Assembly (NCBI GenBank): GCA_003599745.1
Contig: QZJL01000058.1
Span: forward strand, 1 to 54,464
Origin: Dehalococcoidia bacterium
Lineage (GTDB): Bacteria > Chloroflexota > Dehalococcoidia > Dehalococcoidales > SURF-40
Reading direction: 5' to 3'
Length of the DNA stretch: 54,464 bases
Shown: positions 244 to 44,809 of the stretch, piece after piece
Layout: every line of letters begins with the position of its first letter
How positions within the stretch are numbered: position 1 is the stretch's first letter
Made by a program: the position numbers and the translations under genes
The notes under the pieces: model-generated
Told to the model about the DNA's origin: nothing
The model's database searches: none
What the model saw: only the letters and a program-made list of their open reading frames with translations

Positions 244-534
244 ATGAAAGATATTACAGAACTAATCGAAGAACTGAAACATAGGGATAGTAATGTCAGG
301 CAGAATGCCGCGGAAACGCTTGGAATGATAGGTGATGAAAAAGCAATCGATTCTCTCACGTTGGCCTTGAAAGACACAAACAGGTTTGTTCGACAAGATG
401 TAATAGCGGCGCTTGGCAAAATCGGAGGCGCAAGGCTAGCGGAATCTCTTACTCAAGCCTTCGAAGAAGAAAAGGATGAAGTTGTGAGAGATTCGATAGA
501 AAGAGCCCTGGAGAAATTGCAGAAAATAGCTTGA
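244..534 (+). CDS. HEAT-repeat (PBS-lyase-like) protein
   Basis: 96-aa ORF with three repeats of the type D.N.VR..AA.aLG.IGdekAi..L (HEAT_PBS pattern). ATG start. Confidence 0.7.
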   Translation: MKDITELIEELKHRDSNVRQNAAETLGMIGDEKAIDSLTLALKDTNRFVRQDVIAALGKIGGARLAESLTQAFEEEKDEVVRDSIERALEKLQKIA

Positions 535-1400: not shown

Positions 1401-3386
1401 TCACCTTCTGGCCACCTCGACAAACTCCAGCCCCTGCCGCAGCTCGTAGATGCGGTCGCGCATCAGCGCCGCCTTCTCGAACTCCAGGTTTTTGGCGGCG
1501 GCTTTCATCTGAACCTGTAAATCCTTGATAAGTCGGGCAATCTCCTCGCGGCCGGCGGGGGCGGTGTAAGACGCGCGCTCCTCGGCCACCACTTTCACCC
1601 GCTCGGTGATGTCCTTGATGGCCTTGCGGATACCCTGCGGGGTGATGTGGTGCTCTTGGTTATAGGCTTCCTGGATAAGGCGGCGGCGCTCGATTTCCGC
1701 CATCGCCCGCTTCATGGATTCGGTTACTTCGTCGGCGTACAAAATGGCGTGACCGTCAATGTGGCGGGCGGCGCGCCCCATGGTCTGGATGAGCGCCTGC
1801 TCGGAGCGCAAATAACCCGCTTTATCGGCGTCCAGTATTGCCACCAGGCTCACCTCCGGCAGGTCGAGCCCCTCCCGCAGCAGGTTGATGCCCACCACCA
1901 CATCATAGACGCCCATGCGCAGGTCGCGCAGGATTTCCACCCGCTCCAGCGTTTCCACCTCGGAGTGGAGGTAGTGGGTCTTGATGCCCATTTCAATCAG
2001 ATAGTCGGCCATCTCCTCGGCCATGCGCTTGGTGAGGGTAGTCACCAGGCAGCGTTCGCCGCGCGCCACCCGGACCTTAATCTGGTGCAAAAGGTCGTCA
2101 ACCTGTCCCCTGGTCGGCTTCACTTCAACAGTCGGCTCCAGCAGGCCGGTGGGACGCACCAGCTGCTCGGCCACCTGCTGGCTGTGCTGGTATTCGTATG
2201 GGGAGGGGGTCGCCGAGACGTAAATCACCTGCTTCAGGCGCTCGTTGAACTCGTCAAAGTTGAGGGGGCGGTTGTCGAAGGCCGATGGCAGGCGGAAGCC
2301 GTACTCCACCAGCGTCTCCTTGCGCGAGCGGTCGCCGTGGTACATGCCGCGCACCTGGGGCAGCGTCATGTGGGACTCGTCAATGAACATCAGGAAGTCG
2401 TCGGGGAAATAGTCCAGAAGGGTATAGGGAGCGCTGCCCGGGGCTCGTCCGGCAAGGTGGCGCGAGTAGTTTTCCACGGCGTTGCAGTAGCCGGTCTCGG
2501 CCAGCATCTCGATGTCGTAGTTGGTGCGCATTTCCAGCCTGGCAGCCTCCAGCAGTTTGCCTTTGGCCTTCAGTTTGACTAACTCCTCGGCCAGCTCCTG
2601 CTTGATGCCCTCGATAGCCGCCATCAGCCGGTCGTGCGAGGTGACGAAATGCTTGCCGGGATAGACGTCGATTTCGCCAAGCTCGGTTAAAATCTCGCCG
2701 GTGAGCGGCTCAATCCGGACGATGCGCTCAATCTCATCGCCGAAAAACTCAACCCGCAGCGCAATCTCCTCGTAGGCGGGCATCAGCTCCAGGGTGTCGC
2801 CGCGCACGCGAAACTTGCCCCGGCTCAAATCCATGTCATTGCGCTGGTACTGCATGTCCACCAGCCGCCTCAAAAGCTTCTGGCGGGGATAGCTCTGCCC
2901 CTTTTTAAGATTTAGGACAAAGCTGCGGTACTCCTCGGGCGAACCTAAACCGTAGATGCAGGAAACCGAGGCTACGATGACAGTGTCGCGCCGCTCGAAA
3001 AGGGCGCGGGTGGCGGCGTGGCGCAGCTTGTCAATCTCCTCGTTGATGTCAATGTCTTTTTCGATGTAGGTGTCGGTGGCGGGCAGGTAGGCCTCGGGCT
3101 GGTAGTAGTCGTAGTAGCTCACGAAATATTCCACCGCATTGCCGGGGAAGAACTCGCGGAACTCGCTGTAAAGCTGGGCGGCCAGGGTTTTGTTGTGGCA
3201 GAGCACCAGCGTGGGCCGCTGCACGCGGGCAATGACATTGGCCATGGTGAAGGTCTTGCCGCTGCCGGTGACGCCCAGCAGCGTCTGCTGCTTATAATTT
3301 TGCGCAAGGCCGCCCACCAGCTTATCAACCGCCTGGGGCTGGTCGCCGGTCATTTTGAAATCGGAAACTAGCTCAAACTGAGGCAT
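1401..3386 (-). CDS. uvrB: excinuclease ABC subunit B
   Basis: 661 aa. Starts [23 protein letters not shown], carries Walker A GVTGSGKT and helicase motifs, and has the C-terminal UVR domain ([16 protein letters not shown]). Confidence 0.97.
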
Positions 3387-3492
3387 TTTGTGACCTTTTA
3401 GAGTGGAGCTTGCTAAGAATAGTATAGGGGGAGAGAGGGAATGGATGCAATTAGAGGGGAACTACCAGATTTCTTTGGCCCCTTTGATCGAA

Positions 3493-4224
3493 TTAGAAGT
3501 CGGCGAATGTCTTACCCTTTAAATAGTCGGGAAAAGTGTAGATGCCAGTTACCTGTAACCAACACTTATTATCTTCTGCCCACGGCCGTGCCAGTCCCAA
3601 GCGTAGATATAATCTAACAGATTCCTGAAAAGTCTTCTTCAATTCTTCGGCAACTTTTTTCGGTTCTTTATGTTGTCTTATAACTTGCGAATAGCATCGA
3701 TTCCATAGCGTCAGATCACTTACAGGTCGGCAATATGTGCGCCTATTTTTGTCAACAAATGTGACCCTAGGCTTAGCATTCTTCCCGGTTAATTCAATAT
3801 CAACGATTCTAGCGCCTGACAAAGTAGCGATAGATCTGGTCTCAGTACCAGGTAATACCCAATCGTTGCCACTTAGATGTCCTTCAAAAATATCTTCTAC
3901 AGCATCAAACGAGGTTTGCTGCAACGCCCTCTCCCACTCGGCATTGGTACAAAATCCCTTGCCTGTAATTGAGTCAGGGTTGAAACCCATATCTTCGATA
4001 TGCGGAGGATTAACCTTAATGACATGTAGGTCAAATTCTACCTTAGCCGAAGGTCGTACAATTGCTAAATGGTTCCTTTTCAAATAATTTTTCTGAAAAC
4101 CACCATTACATATTAGCCTGACAGAATTCCCATCTTCATCAAGTCCAACAACGCAAACTTCATTTCCATTGCTGAATTCCCGAGGCATCTGGGTCAGGTC
4201 AGTTATCACAATTGTTTTGCGCAT
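3493..4224 (-). CDS. uncharacterised 243-aa protein, third gene of the DUF488 cassette (possibly a dual-OB-fold family, unverified)
   Basis: ATG begins 11 nt after the stop of the upstream DUF488 gene. AT-rich codon usage like its two neighbours. Two beta-rich halves and no catalytic motif recognised. Confidence 0.6.
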   Translation of the reverse strand: MRKTIVITDLTQMPREFSNGNEVCVVGLDEDGNSVRLICNGGFQKNYLKRNHLAIVRPSAKVEFDLHVIKVNPPHIEDMGFNPDSITGKGFCTNAEWERALQQTSFDAVEDIFEGHLSGNDWVLPGTETRSIATLSGARIVDIELTGKNAKPRVTFVDKNRRTYCRPVSDLTLWNRCYSQVIRQHKEPKKVAEELKKTFQESVRLYLRLGLARPWAEDNKCWLQVTGIYTFPDYLKGKTFADF

Positions 4225-4235
4225 TCTTGTTCTCT

Positions 4236-4676
4236 TTATAAATGCACAATTTCAGTTTTTGTTGGTATAATCCGAGCCAAATATTCCGCAGCTAGACGTC
4301 GATGACAACGGGTGGGTTTGGCTTCGGAACAAAGTAATACCACGCCCTCTTCCAACAATACCGACGAAATATGATTCTCGACTTTGCGTTGCCGTATCAA
4401 CTCTAGGTATCTCCGTTCATATTCTGCCCAATCACTTGTTTTTCGGTATTCCTTTAATATTGATTCTTCTGGTGCAAATATTGGGGACTCATGATATTCA
4501 ATGTTAACCAGATGCCTTAGAAAATAAGGCAGGTCGTTCCTTTTTGTAAATCCTGCCAGCTGAGAGTTATTACTAAGGCGAATATCCAGCAAGTGTTTCG
4601 CCCCGCTACTACGCAAAGCTTCAAAAAACTTCTCAGCAGTCTTTTTGGTGAAACCGATGGTATAAATATTCAACAA
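4236..4676 (-). CDS. DUF488 family protein (paralog B)
   Basis: Starts (TTG)LNIYTIGFTKK. Contains LDIR and C-terminal LLCSEAKPTRCHRRL, the DUF488 hallmarks. Begins 4 nt after the stop of paralog A. Confidence 0.8.
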   Translation of the reverse strand: MLNIYTIGFTKKTAEKFFEALRSSGAKHLLDIRLSNNSQLAGFTKRNDLPYFLRHLVNIEYHESPIFAPEESILKEYRKTSDWAEYERRYLELIRQRKVENHISSVLLEEGVVLLCSEAKPTRCHRRLAAEYLARIIPTKTEIVHL

Positions 4677-4680
4677 AATC

Positions 4681-5193
4681 TCACATCGGGAGTGGATATT
4701 GACTAGCTGCTACCCCTACTTTTTCTTTCCACAGGTCTTCATCCGTTTGGATGCGTCCATCGCCCCGAATATGAAATATTTTCACCCCAGCTTGACGCAA
4801 ACTGTCGGCGACTAACATGTTGCGATGGCAAGAAATTGGGTTCTCCTCTGCGCACATAATGCAAACTCTATATCTTTTAACCTCATCCAAAATTCGTCTG
4901 ATTCCGTACCTGTAGTTTTCTTTTCCTTGAATCAATTTATAATCTACTTTACCTGTTTGATTGTCGTAACTATCTAATTCTGACGGCCTCCCGCCTAACA
5001 TGTCGCCCAGGTAAATGTAGTGGATTCTAGCTAGCTTCAACACCTTTTCTAAGTTATCTTTATCTGCAAACGTCGCCCAGCGACTTGTAGGATTACTTCG
5101 CACGTCTACAAGTACTTGGATTTTCGTGCCAATCAGTAATGCTACGAATTGCTCTTGAGTATGGTTGCTATGTCCTATCGTATATATTTGCAT
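4681..5193 (-). CDS. DUF488 family protein (paralog A)
   Basis: Starts MQIYTIGHSNHT. Contains VDVR and IMCAEENPISCHRNML, the DUF488 hallmarks. Confidence 0.85.
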   Translation of the reverse strand: MQIYTIGHSNHTQEQFVALLIGTKIQVLVDVRSNPTSRWATFADKDNLEKVLKLARIHYIYLGDMLGGRPSELDSYDNQTGKVDYKLIQGKENYRYGIRRILDEVKRYRVCIMCAEENPISCHRNMLVADSLRQAGVKIFHIRGDGRIQTDEDLWKEKVGVAASQYPLPM

Positions 5194-5302
5194 TTAAGGA
5201 GTCCTGTCCAATGAATTGACTGTACACAAATAAATTAGCACAAATATTTAACTCGGGCAATTATCTGTCAGTGAAACAGCTTTCACAGCTCTTATAATTA
5301 TC

Positions 5303-6610: not shown

Positions 6611-7381
6611 TTACCGGGAAGCGCTTTGCGCCTCGGCCTCGTGCTTGGCTAAAATCTCGGGAGAGAAGTCGGCGTTGGAATAGACGCCGTTGACATCATC
6701 CAGCTCTTCAAGGCGGTCGAGCAGCTTCAGCGCCTGGAGCCCCGGTTTTTCTTCCAGCTTGATGAGGGTCTTGGCGACCATCGAAAGCTCGGAAGAGTCC
6801 ACGTGCACCCCGGCGGCTTCCAGGGCTTTGCGCACCGCTTCTGTCTCCTCGGGCTTGGTATAAATCTCGATGTCGCCGTTGGACTGCTGGACGTCCTCGG
6901 CGCCGGCGTCAATCGCTTTAAGCTCAAGCTCCTCGACATCCCGGTCGCCGCCCTTGACGGTTATCATGCCGCGCGACTGGAAAAGCCAGGCGACGCAGCC
7001 GCTTTCTCCCAGGCTGCCACCGTGCCGGGTAAAGGCGTTGCGCACTTCCTGGAGGGCGCGGAGGCGGTTATCGGTCATCACCTGCACCAGGATAGCGGTG
7101 CCGCCCGGCCCGTAGCCCTCGAGAATGAACTCCTGGAGAGCGGCCCCTCCGCCCTCGCCGGAGCCTTTCCTGATGGCACGGTCAATGTTATCGAGGGGCA
7201 TGTTGGCGTCCCGGGCTTTCTGCACCGCCAGGCGCAGGCGGAAGTTAGCTTCGGGGCTGGGGCCGCCGGCGCGCACCGCCACGATGATTTCCCGCGCCAG
7301 TCTGGTGAAGAGCTGGCCACGCTTGGCGTCCGCGGCACCTTTCTGGTGCTTGATGGAAGACCATTTCGAATGACCCGACAT
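6611..7381 (-). CDS. YebC/PmpR family DNA-binding transcriptional regulator
   Basis: Starts MSGHSKWSSIKHQKGAADAKRGQLFTRLAREI, which is diagnostic of this family. Confidence 0.95.
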   Translation of the reverse strand: MSGHSKWSSIKHQKGAADAKRGQLFTRLAREIIVAVRAGGPSPEANFRLRLAVQKARDANMPLDNIDRAIRKGSGEGGGAALQEFILEGYGPGGTAILVQVMTDNRLRALQEVRNAFTRHGGSLGESGCVAWLFQSRGMITVKGGDRDVEELELKAIDAGAEDVQQSNGDIEIYTKPEETEAVRKALEAAGVHVDSSELSMVAKTLIKLEEKPGLQALKLLDRLEELDDVNGVYSNADFSPEILAKHEAEAQSASR

Positions 7382-7416
7382 GCCATGTCCCTCCGGGCGG
7401 TTTCACTGATATTCTA

Positions 7417-8028
7417 TCACAAACATTTCAGGTGCGAAACGTCATTGAGCAGGCGCAGAACACCGCCCGGCGAATAGGTCTCGATGATGCTGAGCGAGGC
7501 CAGTTCCAGACGGAACCGCCAGCGGTGCTCCAGCCCGATGCCCAGAAGACGGCAAATCAGGGTGCGCAGCGGGCCGTTGTGGGCGACCACCAGCAGCGTT
7601 TCACCGGCGGTATGCTTTTCGAGGCGTTTCGTGAACCGGCTCACCCGGCGGTTAAACGTAGCGACTGCATCCCCACCCGGGAACACCAGTTTTAGCGTGC
7701 GCTTCTTCCAGAGGCCGGCGACGTCGGGGAAGCGCTGCTCGATTTCGCTGAAAGTAAGCCCCTCAAGCTGGCCGAAGTCAATCTCGCGGAGCTCCGGGCA
7801 GATGGTCACACCAAGGCCGTGTCTTGAGGCGATGAGTTCAGCGGTGGTGCGGGCGCGGGCGAGAGGACTGGCGTAGATGGCATCAATTTTTTCCGAAGCC
7901 AGCCGTTCGCGCAGCCGTGCCGCCTGCTCAAGGCCGAGAGCGCTCAGGGCGACATCGGTCGCACCCCAGTAACGCTCGCTACTCTTTAATTCCGTCTCAC
8001 CGTGTCGTACCAGAAACAAACGTGCCAT
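7417..8028 (-). CDS. cobC: histidine phosphatase family protein, probable alpha-ribazole phosphatase
   Basis: Starts LFLVRHGETE (RHG motif) and has a second His motif VVAHNGPLR. Lies immediately upstream of cobS. Confidence 0.7.
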   Translation of the reverse strand: MARLFLVRHGETELKSSERYWGATDVALSALGLEQAARLRERLASEKIDAIYASPLARARTTAELIASRHGLGVTICPELREIDFGQLEGLTFSEIEQRFPDVAGLWKKRTLKLVFPGGDAVATFNRRVSRFTKRLEKHTAGETLLVVAHNGPLRTLICRLLGIGLEHRWRFRLELASLSIIETYSPGGVLRLLNDVSHLKCL

Positions 8029-8043
8029 CTATACCTCTAAATT

Positions 8044-8823
8044 TTAGGCCAGCCCGATGTGTACCAGCAGCGAGAGCATGACCAATGCCGTCGCCTCGGC
8101 AAGCTCGCCGACCGCGCCGTAAGCAGCAATGTTGAGACCGCCGAAACGGCTTTTCAAATAGAGGCCGAGCAGTCCTGCCACCGCAAAGACACCCGCCATT
8201 ATCACCAGCCCCGGCAGCCTCGCCAGGGAAAAGGTGACGCCGAGGGCGATAAGCGTGGCCGCCAGCATACCGTACCACCTTGCGCCGCGCTTGAAATCGC
8301 CGTCCGGCCCCGACGGGCGGGCGCCGCGGAAGCTGAAAATGGCATAGACCATCGCCCAGCGTCCCAGCACCGGGAAATAAATCAGGGCGTACAGCCACAG
8401 GCTCTGGCTCTGGGGCAGGCTGTCGAGCGCGACGTACTTGAGCAGTAACAGCGCTGCCACCGCGATGATGCCGAAGCTGCCGACACGCTTATCGTCGGTT
8501 ATCCGGAGACGGGTCTCCGGGCCGGCGTGACTGACCAGACCATCGGCGGTATGCGCCAGGCCGCCAAGCTGGCGGGCACCGGAAAATGCCGCCAGGCCGC
8601 CGATTATCAGCACATTGACCAGCGCCGATGGGAAAAGAAGCTTGAGCAGCCAGCCCGAAGCCGCCAGAAAGAGGCCGATGACCAGTCCAACCAGCGGGAA
8701 AAACAGGGCCGAAGCCCCGATTTCGCCCGGGCTGAGCGGGCGGCGTAGGGGCAAGGGGATGGTGGTCAGGTATCTTAAGGCTGCCAGGAATTTCAAACGG
8801 GGCTCCTCGGGTGCCGGTGGCAA
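8044..8823 (-). CDS. cobS: adenosylcobinamide-GDP ribazoletransferase
   Basis: Polytopic membrane protein with the N-terminal LRYLTTIPLP motif typical of CobS. Adjacent to the cobC-like gene. Confidence 0.85.
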   Translation of the reverse strand: MPPAPEEPRLKFLAALRYLTTIPLPLRRPLSPGEIGASALFFPLVGLVIGLFLAASGWLLKLLFPSALVNVLIIGGLAAFSGARQLGGLAHTADGLVSHAGPETRLRITDDKRVGSFGIIAVAALLLLKYVALDSLPQSQSLWLYALIYFPVLGRWAMVYAIFSFRGARPSGPDGDFKRGARWYGMLAATLIALGVTFSLARLPGLVIMAGVFAVAGLLGLYLKSRFGGLNIAAYGAVGELAEATALVMLSLLVHIGLA

Positions 8824-9034
8824 CGTTGCCGGTTAATATTGTAAACTAGACTATAGTAATACATTAACCGCTGGAGCTTCAATATCGCTTTACATATTAT
8901 TTGGCACTTCACAGCCAAATAACAACAAATACCGCCTATTCCACCACCGAACACAGTCCATTTATTCTGTAACACCTTGTCGGCGCTCCAGCACCGAGCA
9001 GGAAGACACATTCCCCCTGCACTCCTTTGCACCT

Positions 9035-9295
9035 TTACTCAGACTCTTCAACCGCATCTTCAAATCCGCTACATTGATTTACACCTATTGCCAGGTCAAA
9101 CTGGAACTCCTTATCCGTAACATACTTTTCCCTAATCCTTTTTTCCAACTTTACTAAAAGAACAGTTATTTCATCATTTATCTTCCCTAACTCTTCGTCA
9201 AACAGCCCGTGGACTACTTCGCTCACGTCCGAATTCCCCATATACGGGCACTCATCTTTACTATAAAAGTATTTACAACCAGCACAAGTACTCAA
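9035..9295 (-). CDS. hypothetical Cys-containing small protein (element, downstream of rep)
   Basis: 86-aa ORF 19 nt downstream of rep on the same strand. N-terminal CAGC..x9..C motif followed by an acidic coiled tail. Confidence 0.5.
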   Translation of the reverse strand: MSTCAGCKYFYSKDECPYMGNSDVSEVVHGLFDEELGKINDEITVLLVKLEKRIREKYVTDKEFQFDLAIGVNQCSGFEDAVEESE

Positions 9296-9314
9296 TTTCT
9301 ACACCATCCTAATA

Positions 9315-10364
9315 TCAATTTACGCAACGGAGCATACCTTCGCTTAGCTCTTCCACTACACCGCCACCAAGCAACGATGCTTTGAACCTCACCTTGCCAT
9401 CCGGCGCGGTGTAGGTACAGGCCTTCAGCGCGTCAAACAACACCACTCCCTTAAACGCCCATTCGCCAGCAGGAGACTCCTTGACGAATTCAGGTAATCG
9501 ATAACATTGCGAGTAACTATAAACCCGCTTTTTATAATACCATAGGTAAGACTGGCTTTCTTCAGTCCAACCTTCCAGCTTCGATACATACTTGCAACAA
9601 TACGAAGCTACATTTACCCGATTCTTATTCTCCAAACCACTACGCCCGTACTTCCATAATACAGACATTTCATCCTCTGCACGAACAAGAAATTGCAAAC
9701 CGGGGAAAAAGACGTGTAAATGAGGATATCCAAACGCCTCATTCCTTACCCTGTGCGACCCCTTTTTATGAGCATCACACTTTCTACCGTTAGCATCCTC
9801 AAAATGATACTCCGGTATCTCTTCAACCGCTTTCAAATATTTATAGCTATTCTTTTCTACTCTGAACCTCCGGGTATTTAACGTGTGCATTAACTTCCGT
9901 AAATGCACATTACAATCTCGCCACGCTTCCTCTTTAGTATAGCGTTTTGGGTCATAGGTCAGCGTCATCAACACTCCATCAGAAAACCACCTCGAACCTA
10001 AACGCTTCCGTATATTTCGTTGCATCAGCTTACGGCCACCAGCAAAATATCTTGATTTTTCCGCCGCCCTCACCACCATATAATCAGGAAAAGGCTTTTT
10101 ACTATCATACTTAGCTAACACGACCCCTTTGCTTTTCAACCTTTCTTTATGAGCTGCGAACTCAGCGCGGTCTTCTTTTGAAATCAGCGGTTTAACCCGT
10201 GACACATTAACTCTATTATGGACAAGGAAAGTAGGATTGTTTAAAAACTCTCCATTTTTATTACGCCAGCCCTGGGCGTACGAGCTTATCCCTTGCAAAC
10301 TAACCTGGGTCTGGTTAATTGATATATCTTCGGTTGACTCGGTTAAAAACGCCGTCTTTTTCAT
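9315..10364 (-). CDS. rep: rolling-circle replication initiator (HUH endonuclease, two-Tyr superfamily I)
   Basis: Three ordered motifs: VLMTLTYD (motif 1), GYPHLHVFF (HUH) and YCCKYVSK (Y-x-x-K-Y, as in phiX174 gpA-type Reps). AGAGGTG RBS. Confidence 0.75.
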   Translation of the reverse strand: MKKTAFLTESTEDISINQTQVSLQGISSYAQGWRNKNGEFLNNPTFLVHNRVNVSRVKPLISKEDRAEFAAHKERLKSKGVVLAKYDSKKPFPDYMVVRAAEKSRYFAGGRKLMQRNIRKRLGSRWFSDGVLMTLTYDPKRYTKEEAWRDCNVHLRKLMHTLNTRRFRVEKNSYKYLKAVEEIPEYHFEDANGRKCDAHKKGSHRVRNEAFGYPHLHVFFPGLQFLVRAEDEMSVLWKYGRSGLENKNRVNVASYCCKYVSKLEGWTEESQSYLWYYKKRVYSYSQCYRLPEFVKESPAGEWAFKGVVLFDALKACTYTAPDGKVRFKASLLGGGVVEELSEGMLRCVN

Positions 10365-10385
10365 CCACTACACCTCTTTTTAAGG

Positions 10386-10420
10386 GGTGGCGGATTAACC
10401 GCCACCACCTTTAATCCGCC
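10386..10420. promoter_or_regulatory. two mutually exclusive hairpins just upstream of the rep start
   Basis: GGTGGCGG-ATTAA-CCGCCACC (10386..10406) shares its left arm with the inverted repeat GGCGGATTAA (10389..10398) / TTAATCCGCC (10411..10420). Confidence 0.5.
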
Positions 10421-10623
10421 TTTCCTTTTTTAAGTGCACGGCATTGGCAGCACATACCGCCAGTTAGCCGTTTCCACTAATCTACACCGCAACTACACTA
10501 AAAACAAGTATCCAGTTTTCAAGGCTTTTACCTCATATCTTCTTTTTCCCTATTTACCCTATACCCTTTTTTCTTATTCATACTTTATACTCAAATCAAT
10601 TTAAAAATGAGTATATTCTTCTG

Positions 10624-10713
10624 TCGGGGAAGCACCGGTGCCGCAACCATACTCCGTATGGTCGTCTCGCTTTCCTGTAACCCAGCCTCACTTTGCGGCA
10701 GGCACTTCCCCGA
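10624..10713. other. 90-nt nested stem structure in the element control region
   Basis: Outer stem TCGGGGAAG (10624..10632) / CTTCCCCGA (10705..10713). Middle stem TGCCGCAA (10639..10646) / TTGCGGCA (10693..10700). Inner hairpin CCATAC-TCC-GTATGG (10647..10661). Confidence 0.4.
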
Positions 10714-10782
10714 CCTTACCATCCTTTCCGGTCTAGGTAATCCTTACTTCGCTATCACCATCTTTAATGGAACTATTCATTA

Positions 10783-10882
10783 TTGTCTGCCTGACCTTTC
10801 AAAGTTTATACCCTTGTCAAGGGACGCTACGCTCTAAAGCCCTTGACTTACGGGTTTCTTAAATTATTGAACAGGCAGACAA
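10783..10882. repeat. 11-bp perfect inverted repeat flanking the integrase promoter region
   Basis: TTGTCTGCCTG (10783..10793) and CAGGCAGACAA (10872..10882), each preceded by ATTATTG. The palindrome CCCTTG-T-CAAGGG lies between them. Confidence 0.5.
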
Positions 10883-10910
10883 GAAGTGCCTAGTTAAAGG
10901 AGAGTGAATT

Positions 10911-11780
10911 ATGGATAGAGCTCAGTACAGTACCTACGGAGAGATTATTTACCAAGACCTACTCGGCCGTGGCAAAAAACCATCTTCTGCCAAACAATGG
11001 GGAAGCATTATCACCAAGTTCGAGCAGATATGCGGCAACAAATCATCTTACGACCGGTCAGACGTCATCAAGTACCTTGCCGCCCGCAGACAAGCCGGTA
11101 TCAAGCAAAATACCATCAACAAAGAGTTACACGCTCTCAAGCTCCTCTGGCAATTGCTGGAAATCGATAAATTCCCGAAACTTAGTATGCCAAAAGTTAA
11201 AGACTCAGATATATCACGCCCTATCCTCGCCAAAGACCAGATAATACAGCTTATCCAGCGTAGCTTCGATACAGTCTCACCACGCTACCAGGCTTTCCTG
11301 GCCCTTGCCACGGTATACGGCATCCGCCGCGAAGAAATAACTCGTATCAACCCGAGCGAGCACATCAAAAACGGTCAGCTCACCATCCTTACCGCTAAAG
11401 GTGGCGTACCTACCAACCATATCATTCCTGAATGCCTACAACCTATCCTCAAGCACTTCGACCCTACCGATGTAATCTATCTAAGCTCAGTGTTCCGCAG
11501 GATTTGTCGCGCCTGCGGTATCAAAACAGGCAAGCGCTACGGCTGGCACAGCATACGCCGGGCACTCGTAACCGAGCTAGTCATATCCGAGGCATCAGGT
11601 CTTAATATCGTACGCTTTATGCGATGGAGCGACCAAACTTCCGGCAACGGCGAGTTCGGAATGCTCACTCTCTACGCCAAAAAAGACCAAGCTCAAATCG
11701 ATAAACAGATTTTCGCCGTTCATCCTTTCCTTCCAGTCTGGGAAAATCCCATCAACTTCAATACCAAAGGAGTAAAGTAA
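10911..11780 (+). CDS. tyrosine recombinase / integrase (paralog 1)
   Basis: Catalytic set in order: GIRREE (Arg), TAKGG (Lys), HSIRR (His-x-x-Arg), MRWSD (Trp), LYAKKD (Tyr). AAAGGAGAG RBS. Confidence 0.85.
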   Translation: MDRAQYSTYGEIIYQDLLGRGKKPSSAKQWGSIITKFEQICGNKSSYDRSDVIKYLAARRQAGIKQNTINKELHALKLLWQLLEIDKFPKLSMPKVKDSDISRPILAKDQIIQLIQRSFDTVSPRYQAFLALATVYGIRREEITRINPSEHIKNGQLTILTAKGGVPTNHIIPECLQPILKHFDPTDVIYLSSVFRRICRACGIKTGKRYGWHSIRRALVTELVISEASGLNIVRFMRWSDQTSGNGEFGMLTLYAKKDQAQIDKQIFAVHPFLPVWENPINFNTKGVK

Positions 11781-12670
11781 TGACCACCTGGTTAAGGTCT
11801 AAAAAAACATTTTCTCCCTACGGCGAAATGGTTTACCTTGACCTAATCGGTCGCGGCAAAACCTTACACACCGCCAGACAATGGGGGAACCTCATCTCCA
11901 ACTTCGAGCAGATATGCGGCAACAAATCATCTTACGACCGGTCAGACGTCATCAAGTACCTTGCCGCCCGCAGACAGGTCAACATCAACAACAATTCCCT
12001 AGTCCGCACTGAATTGGCCGCTCTCAAGCTTCTCTGGCAATTGCTTGAAATCGATAAATTCCCAAAACTCAATATGCCAAAAGTAAGGAATTATGACGTT
12101 CTACGGCCTATCCTCACCAAAGAACAAATCATCCAGCTTATTCAGTCAAGCTTCAACTCCGTTTCACTTCGTAATCAGGCTTTCCTGGCCCTTGCCACGG
12201 TATACGGCATCCGCCGCGAAGAAATGGCTCGCATCAACCCGAGCGAGCACATCAAAAACGGCCAGCTCACCATCCTTACCGCTAAAGGTGGCATACCCAC
12301 CAACCATATCATTCCTGAATGCCTACAAGCTATCCTCAAACACTTCGAGCCAATAGGGCCAACATCTCTTTCCACTTCCTTTCAGATTATCTGTAAATCC
12401 TGTGATATCCACCTCGGCCAGCGTTACGGCTGGCACAGCATACGCCGGGCACTCGTAACCGAGCTAGTCATATCCGAGGCATCAGCCCTTAACATCGTAC
12501 GCTTTATGCGATGGAGCGACCAAACTTCCGGCAACGGCGAGTTCCGGATGCTCGCACGCTACGCTAAAAAAGACCAAGCTCAAATCGATAAACAGATTTT
12601 CGCCGTTCATCCTTTCTTAAAATACTGGCAAACGCCAGTCAAAGCATACACCGAAGGAAAAGTAAAATGA
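11780..12670 (+). CDS. tyrosine recombinase / integrase (paralog 2)
   Basis: Same catalytic set as paralog 1 (GIRREE, TAKGG, HSIRR, MRWSD, RYAKKD). Its start overlaps the paralog 1 stop (TAATG). Confidence 0.85.
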   Translation: MTTWLRSKKTFSPYGEMVYLDLIGRGKTLHTARQWGNLISNFEQICGNKSSYDRSDVIKYLAARRQVNINNNSLVRTELAALKLLWQLLEIDKFPKLNMPKVRNYDVLRPILTKEQIIQLIQSSFNSVSLRNQAFLALATVYGIRREEMARINPSEHIKNGQLTILTAKGGIPTNHIIPECLQAILKHFEPIGPTSLSTSFQIICKSCDIHLGQRYGWHSIRRALVTELVISEASALNIVRFMRWSDQTSGNGEFRMLARYAKKDQAQIDKQIFAVHPFLKYWQTPVKAYTEGKVK

Positions 12671-12831
12671 CTAACGAAGCCGCCTGTATCACCTGCGAAT
12701 TTCTTACCAGCATCAATTGTCCTCGTCAAGATGAACTGGATAAATACGAGGACCCGGTAAAACCATTCTGCACCACTTGCCCTTTCTGGAAGCCATACAT
12801 TGACAAACGCTGCAAAATTACTCTATATTAA
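12667..12831 (+). CDS. 54-aa Cys-rich mini-protein (not in ORF track)
   Basis: The ATG overlaps the integrase-2 TGA (ATGA). Translation is MTNEAACITCEFLTSINCPRQDELDKYEDPVKPFCTTCPFWKPYIDKRCKITLY, with CxxC..C...CxxC..C zinc-ribbon-like spacing. Confidence 0.45.
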   Translation: MTNEAACITCEFLTSINCPRQDELDKYEDPVKPFCTTCPFWKPYIDKRCKITLY

Positions 12832-12867
12832 CTCACACAGAGGAATATATTCCTAAAGGAGTGCTAA

Positions 12868-13092
12868 ATGCAACTGATATTGACTCTCACCAGTCCACCA
12901 TATAATACCAGCCCAGCTATTCACACCTACTACTTGCACCGCAAAAACAAACACAGGCTATTATCCCTCAAAGTTACCACCTGCGAAATACCGCCATCCG
13001 GTTATACCTTCGCCGAGAAAATAAACGCCAATAATCCCGAAGAAGCCTGGGCTATCGCTAAAAAAATCACAGCAAAATCACTACTTCCATAA
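12868..13092 (+). CDS. hypothetical 74-aa element protein
   Basis: AAAGGAG RBS. Very AT-rich. Shares a ~25-aa module (INANNPEEAWAIAKKI) with the next ORF. Confidence 0.4.
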   Translation: MQLILTLTSPPYNTSPAIHTYYLHRKNKHRLLSLKVTTCEIPPSGYTFAEKINANNPEEAWAIAKKITAKSLLP

Positions 13093-13102
13093 ATACCGGC
13101 AG

Positions 13103-13741
13103 ATGCCAATCAAAATGAAGCACAAAACCAAAACTTACTTCGTATATATCTATACCACGGCAAAATCAATGCGCCTTGACCTATCCTCACATTATTACGA
13201 AAATATTGGGAAAGGCTACCGGCTTTTTACCAGTATCAACGCATCATCATTTGACTCGGCCATAGACCGACTCTCCCACCTCTTCAACACAACATTCTCT
13301 TTCGAAAATCCAGTCACCAACTCCACATACTTCTTGCTTCATTTAAAAACCCAAAAGCCTAACCATAACCTAATCAGACCAACAAATCTTAAAATATTGC
13401 ATTGGAGCAAAATAACTAAAAAAATGCTCCAATCATCAACCGTCCTCTCAAGAATTGAAGCACGCTCTTATGAACAAGCCATTAATTGGTTTATATCTGA
13501 ATTCGATACCACACGCGAAATAAAACAATACCTTCTACACCTCGACATCTACAAACAACTAGCCATTGAAAACCACCAAAACAAAATACTTGAACTTTCA
13601 GGTCTTAAATACGTATGCAATCCTAAAATAATCACTAGAAATAACAGAAACGTTTTAATATCAATTGGAGGACATTTCATTAAAATCGGCAACGAAGAAC
13701 AAATTTACAGACCAGTGGAAGACCCCTTTAGTATCTATTAA
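13103..13741 (+). CDS. hypothetical 212-aa element protein with two copies of the same module
   Basis: Contains INASSFDSAIDRLSHLF and IEARSYEQAINWFISEF. No family recognised. Confidence 0.5.
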   Translation: MPIKMKHKTKTYFVYIYTTAKSMRLDLSSHYYENIGKGYRLFTSINASSFDSAIDRLSHLFNTTFSFENPVTNSTYFLLHLKTQKPNHNLIRPTNLKILHWSKITKKMLQSSTVLSRIEARSYEQAINWFISEFDTTREIKQYLLHLDIYKQLAIENHQNKILELSGLKYVCNPKIITRNNRNVLISIGGHFIKIGNEEQIYRPVEDPFSIY

Positions 13742-13901
13742 AAATTGACCAAAACCCCTCAGTCCACTTATACTAGAATATGAACAACCACGCTCGCTCA
13801 GTATACTTTTAGCTTCAACAGTCTAAACTATTTTAGGGTGGAGTAATAGTCTCTGGCCAACCGTCCGGTCGGGACCAAATTAATTACCCACTAAAGTCGT
13901 T

Positions 13902-43891: not shown

Positions 43892-44809
43892 TTAATCTGC
43901 TTCCCGTCCTTTCAAAATATCTTTCAATCTTTCCAGTTCTTCATTACTATCAGAGTAGATTTCACGCTCGCAGTAAATCGCTTTTAGAGAATTCATCGCC
44001 TCCACTTCTCCCTTATTGAATTCTCTTATCTCGTATTCTTTTGTGGTTGGGGCAAAGATGACTTCTTTTCTAAACATATAAATCATATATTCTGGTGCTA
44101 TGGGAAAGTAGACTTCATATGGAAGGCTAAATTTTCTTAGCTCATATCTTTTGACAAGACTTTTGTGAAGATAAGGAGGAAAGTCACTTGTCACAAATTT
44201 TTTATCAGGAGGAGCCTTTGCTACAACCCACCTGTAATCTAGGAACATATCACGAGACGGGTCATTGTGGGGGTTATGAGGAGTGCCAATAGCACCTGTT
44301 AAAACGTCCCTGACTGTAAACATTGTCATCACTGATTCCCGAAACTCCTTCTCAGAAAAGCCATTCTCTTTTATGAGGTTACCACTTGCATCCATTATCT
44401 TATCGAACGATTCTTCCCCAATCCTGTTGCGCATAAACGTTTGAGGCACAGCATGCCTCATCATCTGTGACCCAATAAACTCGGCTAAACCCCAACGTGT
44501 TTCCTCATCAATTTCGTCTTTCGCACCGCCCAAATAAGCTATCATTGTTCGTAAACAACCAGCAAAACGGTTGTCTAACTCGCTTAAAGCTCTCTCAAAA
44601 AAATCTTTCCCAAATATTGTGCCTTTTAGCATCCCTACGTTAAACAAGTTGTTTCTGCCACCCACGTTTCTAGTCTTTTGTTTTCTTATCTCAAGCCGTC
44701 GCTTGTCAAGCACAAATATCTCATCATTCTCACTATTGTCCTTTCTATCTATAGCCCAATAGTTCAAATAAAACTGGGGAACCATATGTTGGTATTTACT
44801 TTCACTCAT
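43892..44809 (-). CDS. DUF4238 domain protein (AT-rich orphan)
   Basis: N-terminal HMVPQFYLNYW matches the DUF4238 H.VPQFYL signature. AT content is clearly higher than in neighbouring genes. Confidence 0.7.
   Translation of the reverse strand: MSESKYQHMVPQFYLNYWAIDRKDNSENDEIFVLDKRRLEIRKQKTRNVGGRNNLFNVGMLKGTIFGKDFFERALSELDNRFAGCLRTMIAYLGGAKDEIDEETRWGLAEFIGSQMMRHAVPQTFMRNRIGEESFDKIMDASGNLIKENGFSEKEFRESVMTMFTVRDVLTGAIGTPHNPHNDPSRDMFLDYRWVVAKAPPDKKFVTSDFPPYLHKSLVKRYELRKFSLPYEVYFPIAPEYMIYMFRKEVIFAPTTKEYEIREFNKGEVEAMNSLKAIYCEREIYSDSNEELERLKDILKGREAD

Follow-up and report, generated by a model that had tools for sequence, protein, structure and literature searches.

A co-conserved trio of two DUF488 proteins and a dual-OB protein in a Dehalococcoidia genome, a candidate DNA-directed module

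Between ruvA and uvrB of a Dehalococcoidia bacterium lies an AT-rich operon of three genes, which encode two divergent DUF488 proteins, here called D1 and D2, and a protein composed of two OB-like barrels, here called DuOB. The operon is found in contig QZJL01000058.1 of a metagenome-assembled genome (GenBank assembly GCA_003599745.1), and the window analysed is this entire contig of 54,464 bp. The same three genes stand together in nearly every related locus that we could evaluate, and we propose that they constitute a mobile, DNA-directed module in which DuOB would target a D1:D2 enzyme to DNA for the processing of terminal groups, an account that we regard as evenly poised between right and wrong. 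Whatever its function, the trio is a further Chloroflexota instance of a known, experimentally uncharacterised system and not a new class, since the class, judged by profile matches, is already covered computationally by the Pfam models DuOB and DUF488-N3a and by the PADLOC candidate PDC-M45.

In the list of open reading frames (ORFs) of the window, the three minus-strand genes between ruvA and uvrB encode 170, 146 and 243 aa. The features of the interval, in the direction of transcription, are as follows:

5194..5302, minus strand: AT-rich leader of 109 nt from the ruvA stop to the start of D1, containing a promoter-like site and a palindrome, both read in the sequence.
4681..5193, minus strand: D1, canonical DUF488 protein of 170 aa and first gene of the operon, assigned by PF04343, PADLOC PDC-M45B and its conserved residues.
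4236..4676, minus strand: D2, protein of the DUF488-N3a subclade and middle gene, 146 aa from TTG 4676 or 145 aa from TTG 4673, assigned by PF04343, PF22751 and PDC-M45C.
3493..4224, minus strand: DuOB-family protein of 243 aa and last gene of the operon, with two OB-like beta-barrel halves, assigned by its orthologues, a structure model and Foldseek.
3387..3492, minus strand: spacer of 106 nt from the DuOB stop to the uvrB start, which forms the downstream edge of the low-GC block, read from the sequence.

The first-pass annotation had read these genes as one tight operon, with which the coordinates agree, the gaps being 4 nt between D1 and D2 and 11 nt between D2 and DuOB. The start of D2 is more likely TTG 4673 than TTG 4676, because a second assembly annotates 4673 and the family consensus begins MKIYTIGFT; the protein would then have 145 aa and the first gap 7 nt.

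For the distribution of the trio, one genome per species was scanned, which gave 80 loci with a DuOB relative at 30-56% identity; in six of these the trio is cut by a contig end, and 74 are evaluable. D1, D2 and DuOB are complete in 70 of the 74, so that the co-conservation on which the reading of the first-pass annotation depended is borne out by the analysis of gene neighbourhoods. The order D1>D2>DuOB on one strand prevails (62 loci), while four loci have D1 and D2 fused in one ORF, two have the DUF488 pair divergent from DuOB and two have DuOB first. The exceptions are a deletion chimera of D2 and DuOB (L068), a locus with D1 and DuOB from which D2 is missing (L073) and two loci with DuOB alone (L017, 6001-6807, and L035, 5836-6732), at which no DUF488 gene lies within 6 kb. 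L035 appears to have lost both DUF488 genes, because its flanking genes are common to L033, which has the full trio. The same trio occurs in three further metagenome loci (L001, L003, L085). By taxonomy the 80 loci are nearly all Chloroflexota (Dehalococcoidia, Anaerolineae, Thermomicrobiales and Chloroflexia), with a few Desulfobacteraceae, Poribacteria, Bacteroidetes and Bacillota.

Both upstream genes are DUF488 genes, as had been claimed: D1 scores 72.2 bits and D2 72.6 bits against PF04343 (DUF488), for which the gathering cut-off is 22.2 bits. D2 also passes PF22751 (DUF488-N3a, the 'Active DUF488-N3 subclade') with 39.2 bits against a cut-off of 27 bits, whereas D1, at 14.7 bits, lies outside this subclade. 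The hallmarks pointed out beforehand (IYTIGHS or IYTIGF, DVR or DIR, and C.E..P..CHR) do occur, and the majority of them reach a conservation of at least 95% among the 72 orthologues collected for each protein. In D1 this degree of conservation extends to G7, H8, D30, R32, P35, S37, C114, E116, P119, C122, H123, R124 and H141, and the protein has the full canonical set of G-H-S, D-x-R and C-x-E...P..C-H-R together with a C-terminal H-I-R-G-D-G segment. The D2 family retains T6, G8, F9, D31, R33, Q39, C116, S117, E118, C124, H125, R126 and R127, such that D-x-R and C-S-E...C-H-R-R persist and Phe replaces the canonical His (T-I-G-F-T). To call N3a the 'active subclade' implies that its partner is inactive, yet all the canonical motifs are intact in D1, whereas the His of the GHS motif is missing from D2, which belongs to N3a.

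D1 and D2 share 27% identity and belong to separate conserved families of orthologues; on this sequence evidence they are old paralogues, with no sign of recent duplication. Single-protein fusions of the two are found in L057, L063, L065, L066 and L089, and fused D1-D2 proteins of 310-400 aa make up about 65 of the best 120 matches to the L057 fusion, at identities down to 34%, one of them being from a Bathyarchaeia archaeon. Because fusion into a single polypeptide is so common across lineages, there is strong indirect evidence that D1 and D2 act as a hetero-dimer or hetero-pseudodimer, and the earlier preference for a hetero-oligomer over a recent duplication thus stands. A sequence search of the PDB returned no solved relatives of either protein.

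The third protein is less easily placed. The first-pass annotation had suggested that it might belong to a family named by PGAP as dual OB domain-containing, of which the family membership holds by homology and fold, and the name is one that no source gives to this protein: no NCBIfam model matches any of the three proteins, and the NCBI annotation of the 243-aa protein is 'hypothetical protein'. Taken directly, it has no match in Pfam, NCBIfam or PADLOC, and none to PF22557 (DuOB, 'dual OB-containing domain', cut-off 27 bits) even at E<=10. Orthologues at 50-67% identity nevertheless pass PF22557 (P0002, P0003, P0043, P0051 and P0120), the closest of them, P0002, at 67% identity to the window protein and with 39.4 bits. 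An initial search with the 243-aa protein gave 288 homologues, a profile built from 28 DuOB-family proteins reached 995 cluster representatives at E<=1e-3, and a profile including the window protein retrieves P0179, itself scoring 63.7 bits to DuOB, at E 3.6e-43. This homology to passing orthologues, together with the predicted fold, supports membership of the DuOB or dual-OB family, though the window protein itself falls below the Pfam threshold.

In the AlphaFold2 model of the window DuOB, which has a mean predicted local distance difference test (pLDDT) score of 94.2 and a predicted template modelling score (pTM) of 0.90, the chain forms two beta-rich halves. Its best Foldseek matches in the PDB are tandem-OB proteins of single-stranded DNA (ssDNA) ends, namely Oxytricha TEBP-alpha (1k8g, E 2.7e-4), Tetrahymena Teb1, CTC1 of CST and human POT1, and among viral proteins it comes closest to LEF-3, which binds ssDNA in baculoviruses, and to OB domains from DNA ligases. 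The tandem-OB matches have probabilities of 0.97-1.0, template modelling (TM) scores of 0.25-0.40 and identities of 6-13%. What DuOB has in common with TEBP-alpha, Teb1, CTC1, POT1 and LEF-3 is two consecutive OB-like barrels; in contrast to them it has invariant motifs of its own (TDxTxM, PPHxED, RxGLxR and QxTG) and no sequence similarity to them, so that the likeness, as far as the model goes, is one of fold without family membership. A PDB sequence search with the DuOB profile likewise gave no related solved structure.

Informative for function are the proteins to which DuOB is fused. It is joined to a full RecQ with Zn-binding, RQC and HRDC domains in L050 (78-2744), L052 (5902-9588) and P0179, the fusion of L052 including TPR repeats as well and retaining D1 and D2 upstream. 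Other fusions are to RQC plus HRDC (P0245), to HRDC alone (P0189, P0194) and, in L021 (166-1398), with the end of D2 visible upstream, to a domain of the UDG superfamily; two further proteins have HEAT repeats (P0254, P0166), and another has a short tail that by eye resembles a helix-turn-helix. Because the RecQ, RQC, HRDC and UDG-superfamily partners handle DNA, we place the system on DNA, and these fusions support a DNA-directed role for it, in line with the nucleic-acid-directed system conjectured at the outset.

How, then, does the trio relate to what has been catalogued? Burroughs and Aravind (2023, in NAR Genom Bioinform) reportedly defined a three-gene DUF488-N3/DuOB system and are said to predict DNA-end processing by it in virus-host conflicts. 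The window trio resembles that system in that D2 passes PF22751, the orthologues of the third protein pass PF22557 and a second DUF488 paralogue stands in the same tight operon, and differs from it in that the window DuOB is below the Pfam threshold. Similarly, the PADLOC check proposed in the first-pass annotation had a divided outcome for the candidate PDC-M45 (components A, B and C) of PADLOC-DB v2, with D1 matching M45B (E 6e-49) and D2 matching M45C (E 7e-56), and with no match to M45A for the window DuOB or for 14 other DuOB proteins. The one match to M45A is weak, and comes from a DuOB fusion (P0141, E 0.003) over 160 residues of the 230-position profile. The PDC systems of PADLOC are candidates for phage defence, and the name 'PDC-M45' is found in no searchable paper.

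The window copy of the trio is a horizontally acquired block, because its base composition is far below that of its flanks: the cassette has a GC content of 0.41-0.42 and a GC content at third codon positions (GC3) of 0.37-0.41, against 0.59-0.64 and 0.71-0.82 for the six flanking genes (uvrB, ruvA, ruvC, yebC and the next two). The island inferred earlier from base composition is hereby confirmed in a window and codon calculation. Of these flanking genes, uvrB (1401..3386) scores 939 bits against UvrB of the PDB, and the identities of RuvA and RuvC come from precomputed Pfam matches. The cassette has the identical position in a second contig from this population, which is 99.8% identical. At its borders there are no direct repeats beyond the chance level, no tRNA target was found and the block holds no integrase or recombinase.

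The nearest RuvA relatives, at 58-63% identity, retain the order yebC-ruvC-ruvA ... uvrB, and their ruvA-uvrB interval (for example in L090 and L091) is occupied by 2.9-4.2 kb of unrelated, partly AT-rich genes without DUF488 or DuOB. No true empty site was found among close relatives, the best of which has a RuvA 63% identical and other cargo at this position. Because relatives hold unrelated cargo there, the interval probably serves as a site of variable cargo, the location of the window copy among repair genes is probably incidental, and the first-pass annotation's use of this neighbourhood as a functional clue is probably mistaken; for the same reason, that the cargo differs among relatives, we rejected a functional tie of the window trio to ruvA and uvrB. 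The interval in L090 has a 243-aa ORF (4030-4761), very AT-rich (GC about 0.35) and unrelated to DuOB, which comes after a conserved 147-aa gene absent from the window.

Across the wider set, the GC content of the trio is more than 0.03 below that of its flanks in 36 of 79 loci and above it in one, and most loci have unique neighbours. Low GC and varied contexts fit a repeated transfer of the trio.

The leader of the window operon contains a putative promoter-like site (5271..5243, by match to the consensus), abutted by a perfect 6-4-6 palindrome, GTGAAA-GCTG-TTTCAC, at 5271-5286, 17 nt past the ruvA stop. By its sequence this palindrome could be the stem of a ruvA terminator or an operator. 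It is not kept in other loci, no palindrome is common to the regions upstream of D1 in 67 loci, and no Rfam family was matched in the region including the leader.

In the mechanism that we favour, DuOB would be the targeting subunit, its tandem OB barrels binding ssDNA, a DNA end or a junction, and would recruit a heterodimer or pseudo-dimer of D1, the canonical DUF488 protein, and D2, the DUF488-N3a protein. The Cys/His/Arg loop of this pair (C-x-E...C-H-R) would then act on a phosphate or sugar-phosphate group at the terminus of the bound nucleic acid, by transfer or removal, perhaps together with a RecQ-type helicase. The biological use would most likely lie in conflict with phages or mobile DNA of other kinds, accessory DNA repair being almost as plausible. 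DUF488 is reportedly placed by Burroughs and Aravind in the rhodanese-phosphatase superfamily, grouped with RapZ-C and DUF4326, and it is from this placement and from a published account of the superfamily and of DUF4326 that we infer the chemistry of the pair. In keeping with the RapZ-C/DUF4326 branch, D1 and D2 both have a loop that follows a beta-strand and carries conserved Cys and Arg residues, and they differ from the classical superfamily in that the loop reads C-x-E-x2-P-x2-C-H-R as opposed to C-x5-R, the structural match to RapZ being weak. In the account referred to, rhodanese-phosphatase enzymes take off terminal phosphate in a Cys-dependent manner, and their relative DUF4326 is a likely processor of ribose-linked phosphate, proposed to act on ADP-ribose derivatives (PMC9503650).

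A role in conflict is favoured by the candidate status in PADLOC, by the mobile, AT-rich pattern and by two particular loci. In L001, a ThsB-TIR gene and a UvrD-type helicase with an OLD-family ATPase stand immediately upstream of the trio. In L087 (10001-11931; IMGVR_UViG_3300006094_000039) a D1-D2 fusion and DuOB stand on the opposite strand within an 86-kb phage-like contig, in a long stretch of unannotated genes, one of which matches PF09979 (Pa193_gp24), and have the appearance of a moron-like insert; this is the one DuOB locus that a search of IMG/VR returned.

Several observations weigh against the mechanism or against its use in conflict. A tblastn search with DuOB found no match in GenBank phages or PLSDB plasmids, and most neighbours of the trio are ordinary housekeeping genes: 150 neighbouring proteins fall into 138 Pfam families, of which RuvB is the commonest specific one, and matches to defence models are scattered. 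In one Dehalococcoidia clade the trio is stable between Fur/ZnuABC genes and ruvB, which is atypical of a defence island. On the structural side, both domains of one natural D1-D2 fusion fold well in an AlphaFold2 model (pLDDT 87), in which the linker is disordered and the pTM of 0.57 defines no interface between them; the Foldseek matches of this model are weak and unspecific, comprising KaiC, RapZ (E 3.5e-3, TM 0.21) and tetrapyrrole-methylase-like folds; the latter reach probabilities of 0.8-0.9 and, like RapZ, rank below the unrelated KaiC. Furthermore, DuOB has invariant polar residues (H75, E77, D78, R36, R208 and R213), and because of these and its own motifs it may be catalytic itself, beyond passive binding. 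Finally, a literature search returned no biochemical or genetic data on any component of the trio.

The chief alternative is that the trio is a dedicated accessory of DNA repair and recombination, with DuOB sensing blocked ends or ssDNA where forks stall or break and the DUF488 pair cleaning termini for the RecQ and Ruv machinery, a proposal that is possible and, to our mind, doubtful. The fusions of DuOB to canonical RecQ, to HRDC and to a UDG-superfamily domain are in its favour, although RecQ-like helicases occur in defence systems too and the helicase of a DuOB fusion has its top PADLOC scores on the DpdF and PsyrT models. Support from context comes from the convergent ruvB found adjacent to the trio or at most two genes downstream in eight Dehalococcoidia (L018, L020, L026, L029, L030, L032, L036 and L044, at about 6750-8750), where synteny is conserved, the GC content of the trio is near the host level and several loci have genes of the Fur/ZnuABC type upstream; the conserved synteny suggests a long vertical residence beside this Holliday-junction gene. 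Other loci add to it DprA close downstream of the trio (L003), or parAB upstream and an AP-endonuclease gene about 3 kb downstream (L089), and the copy in the window has ruvA and uvrB as its neighbours. Against this last point, the unrelated cargo of L090 and L091 makes the position look like the effect of a hotspot, and the distribution as a whole is patchy and AT-rich with varied contexts. Nor is the LexA-box GAAC-N4-GTTC enriched upstream of D1: of 67 loci, 6 have a match, as compared with 4.5 +/- 2.0 after shuffling. The molecular model is common to defence and repair, either of which is a plausible role.

A second alternative, which we consider distinctly improbable, would have the DUF488 pair act on a small molecule derived from a nucleotide, such as a signalling nucleotide or a derivative of ADP-ribose or NAD, with DuOB as the sensor or effector that couples it to DNA. 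It draws on the proposed action of the sister family DUF4326 on phosphates of ADP-ribose derivatives (PMC9503650), on the weak RapZ match of the fusion model and on an ADP-ribosylglycohydrolase gene about 2.5 kb upstream of the trio in L003, but no cyclase, TIR, ART or SLOG partner is conserved beside the trio across the 80 loci, and all the informative fusions join the system to DNA-handling domains. That the three genes are mere chance neighbours or a decaying remnant with no functional unity, as the rare exceptions with a solitary DuOB, a missing D2 or a chimera might be taken to indicate, has next to no probability and is refuted by their co-conservation, which persists to identities as low as 30% and is accompanied by tight spacing, gene fusions and ORFs that are intact.

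Elsewhere in the window, a block of about 5 kb at 8849-13823, AT-rich (GC about 0.40-0.49) and flanked by cobS and a DsbD-like gene, is missing from L084, a contig of the same population with 99.8% identity. It encodes a protein like Rep ORF2/G2P (9318-10364, minus strand) and two weakly tyrosine-recombinase-like ORFs (10911-11777 and 11780-12667), and from its sequence looks like a polymorphic integrated element. A gene for a DUF4238 protein (43895-44809, minus strand, E 1.7e-34) lies in another patch of low GC (0.40-0.47), which suggests a further acquired gene. Upstream of uvrB, a 96-aa ORF of lower GC (244-534, plus strand) resembles HEAT or PBS-lyase repeats by eye; a link to the DuOB-HEAT fusions is unsupported.

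DUF488 proteins occur in thousands of genomes, YeaO of E. coli being a member, and to our knowledge no activity has been demonstrated for this large family. The window locus and its approximately 80 relatives, as a compact three-protein system, offer a tractable entry to DUF488 function, with hints for the design of experiments in the natural D1-D2 fusions, in the fusions of DuOB to RecQ, HRDC and UDG-superfamily domains, which hint at the substrate, and in the invariant residues. We suggest, tentatively, that a DUF488 heterodimer guided by DuOB may represent a new kind of DNA-end-modifying enzyme, which would attach or take off a phosphate-linked group at ssDNA ends or junctions together with RecQ-type helicases. 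If true, this would be the first biochemical function for DUF488 and a new way of blocking phage DNA replication or of restarting damaged forks, and a functional result would decide between defence and repair as the role of the PADLOC candidate PDC-M45.

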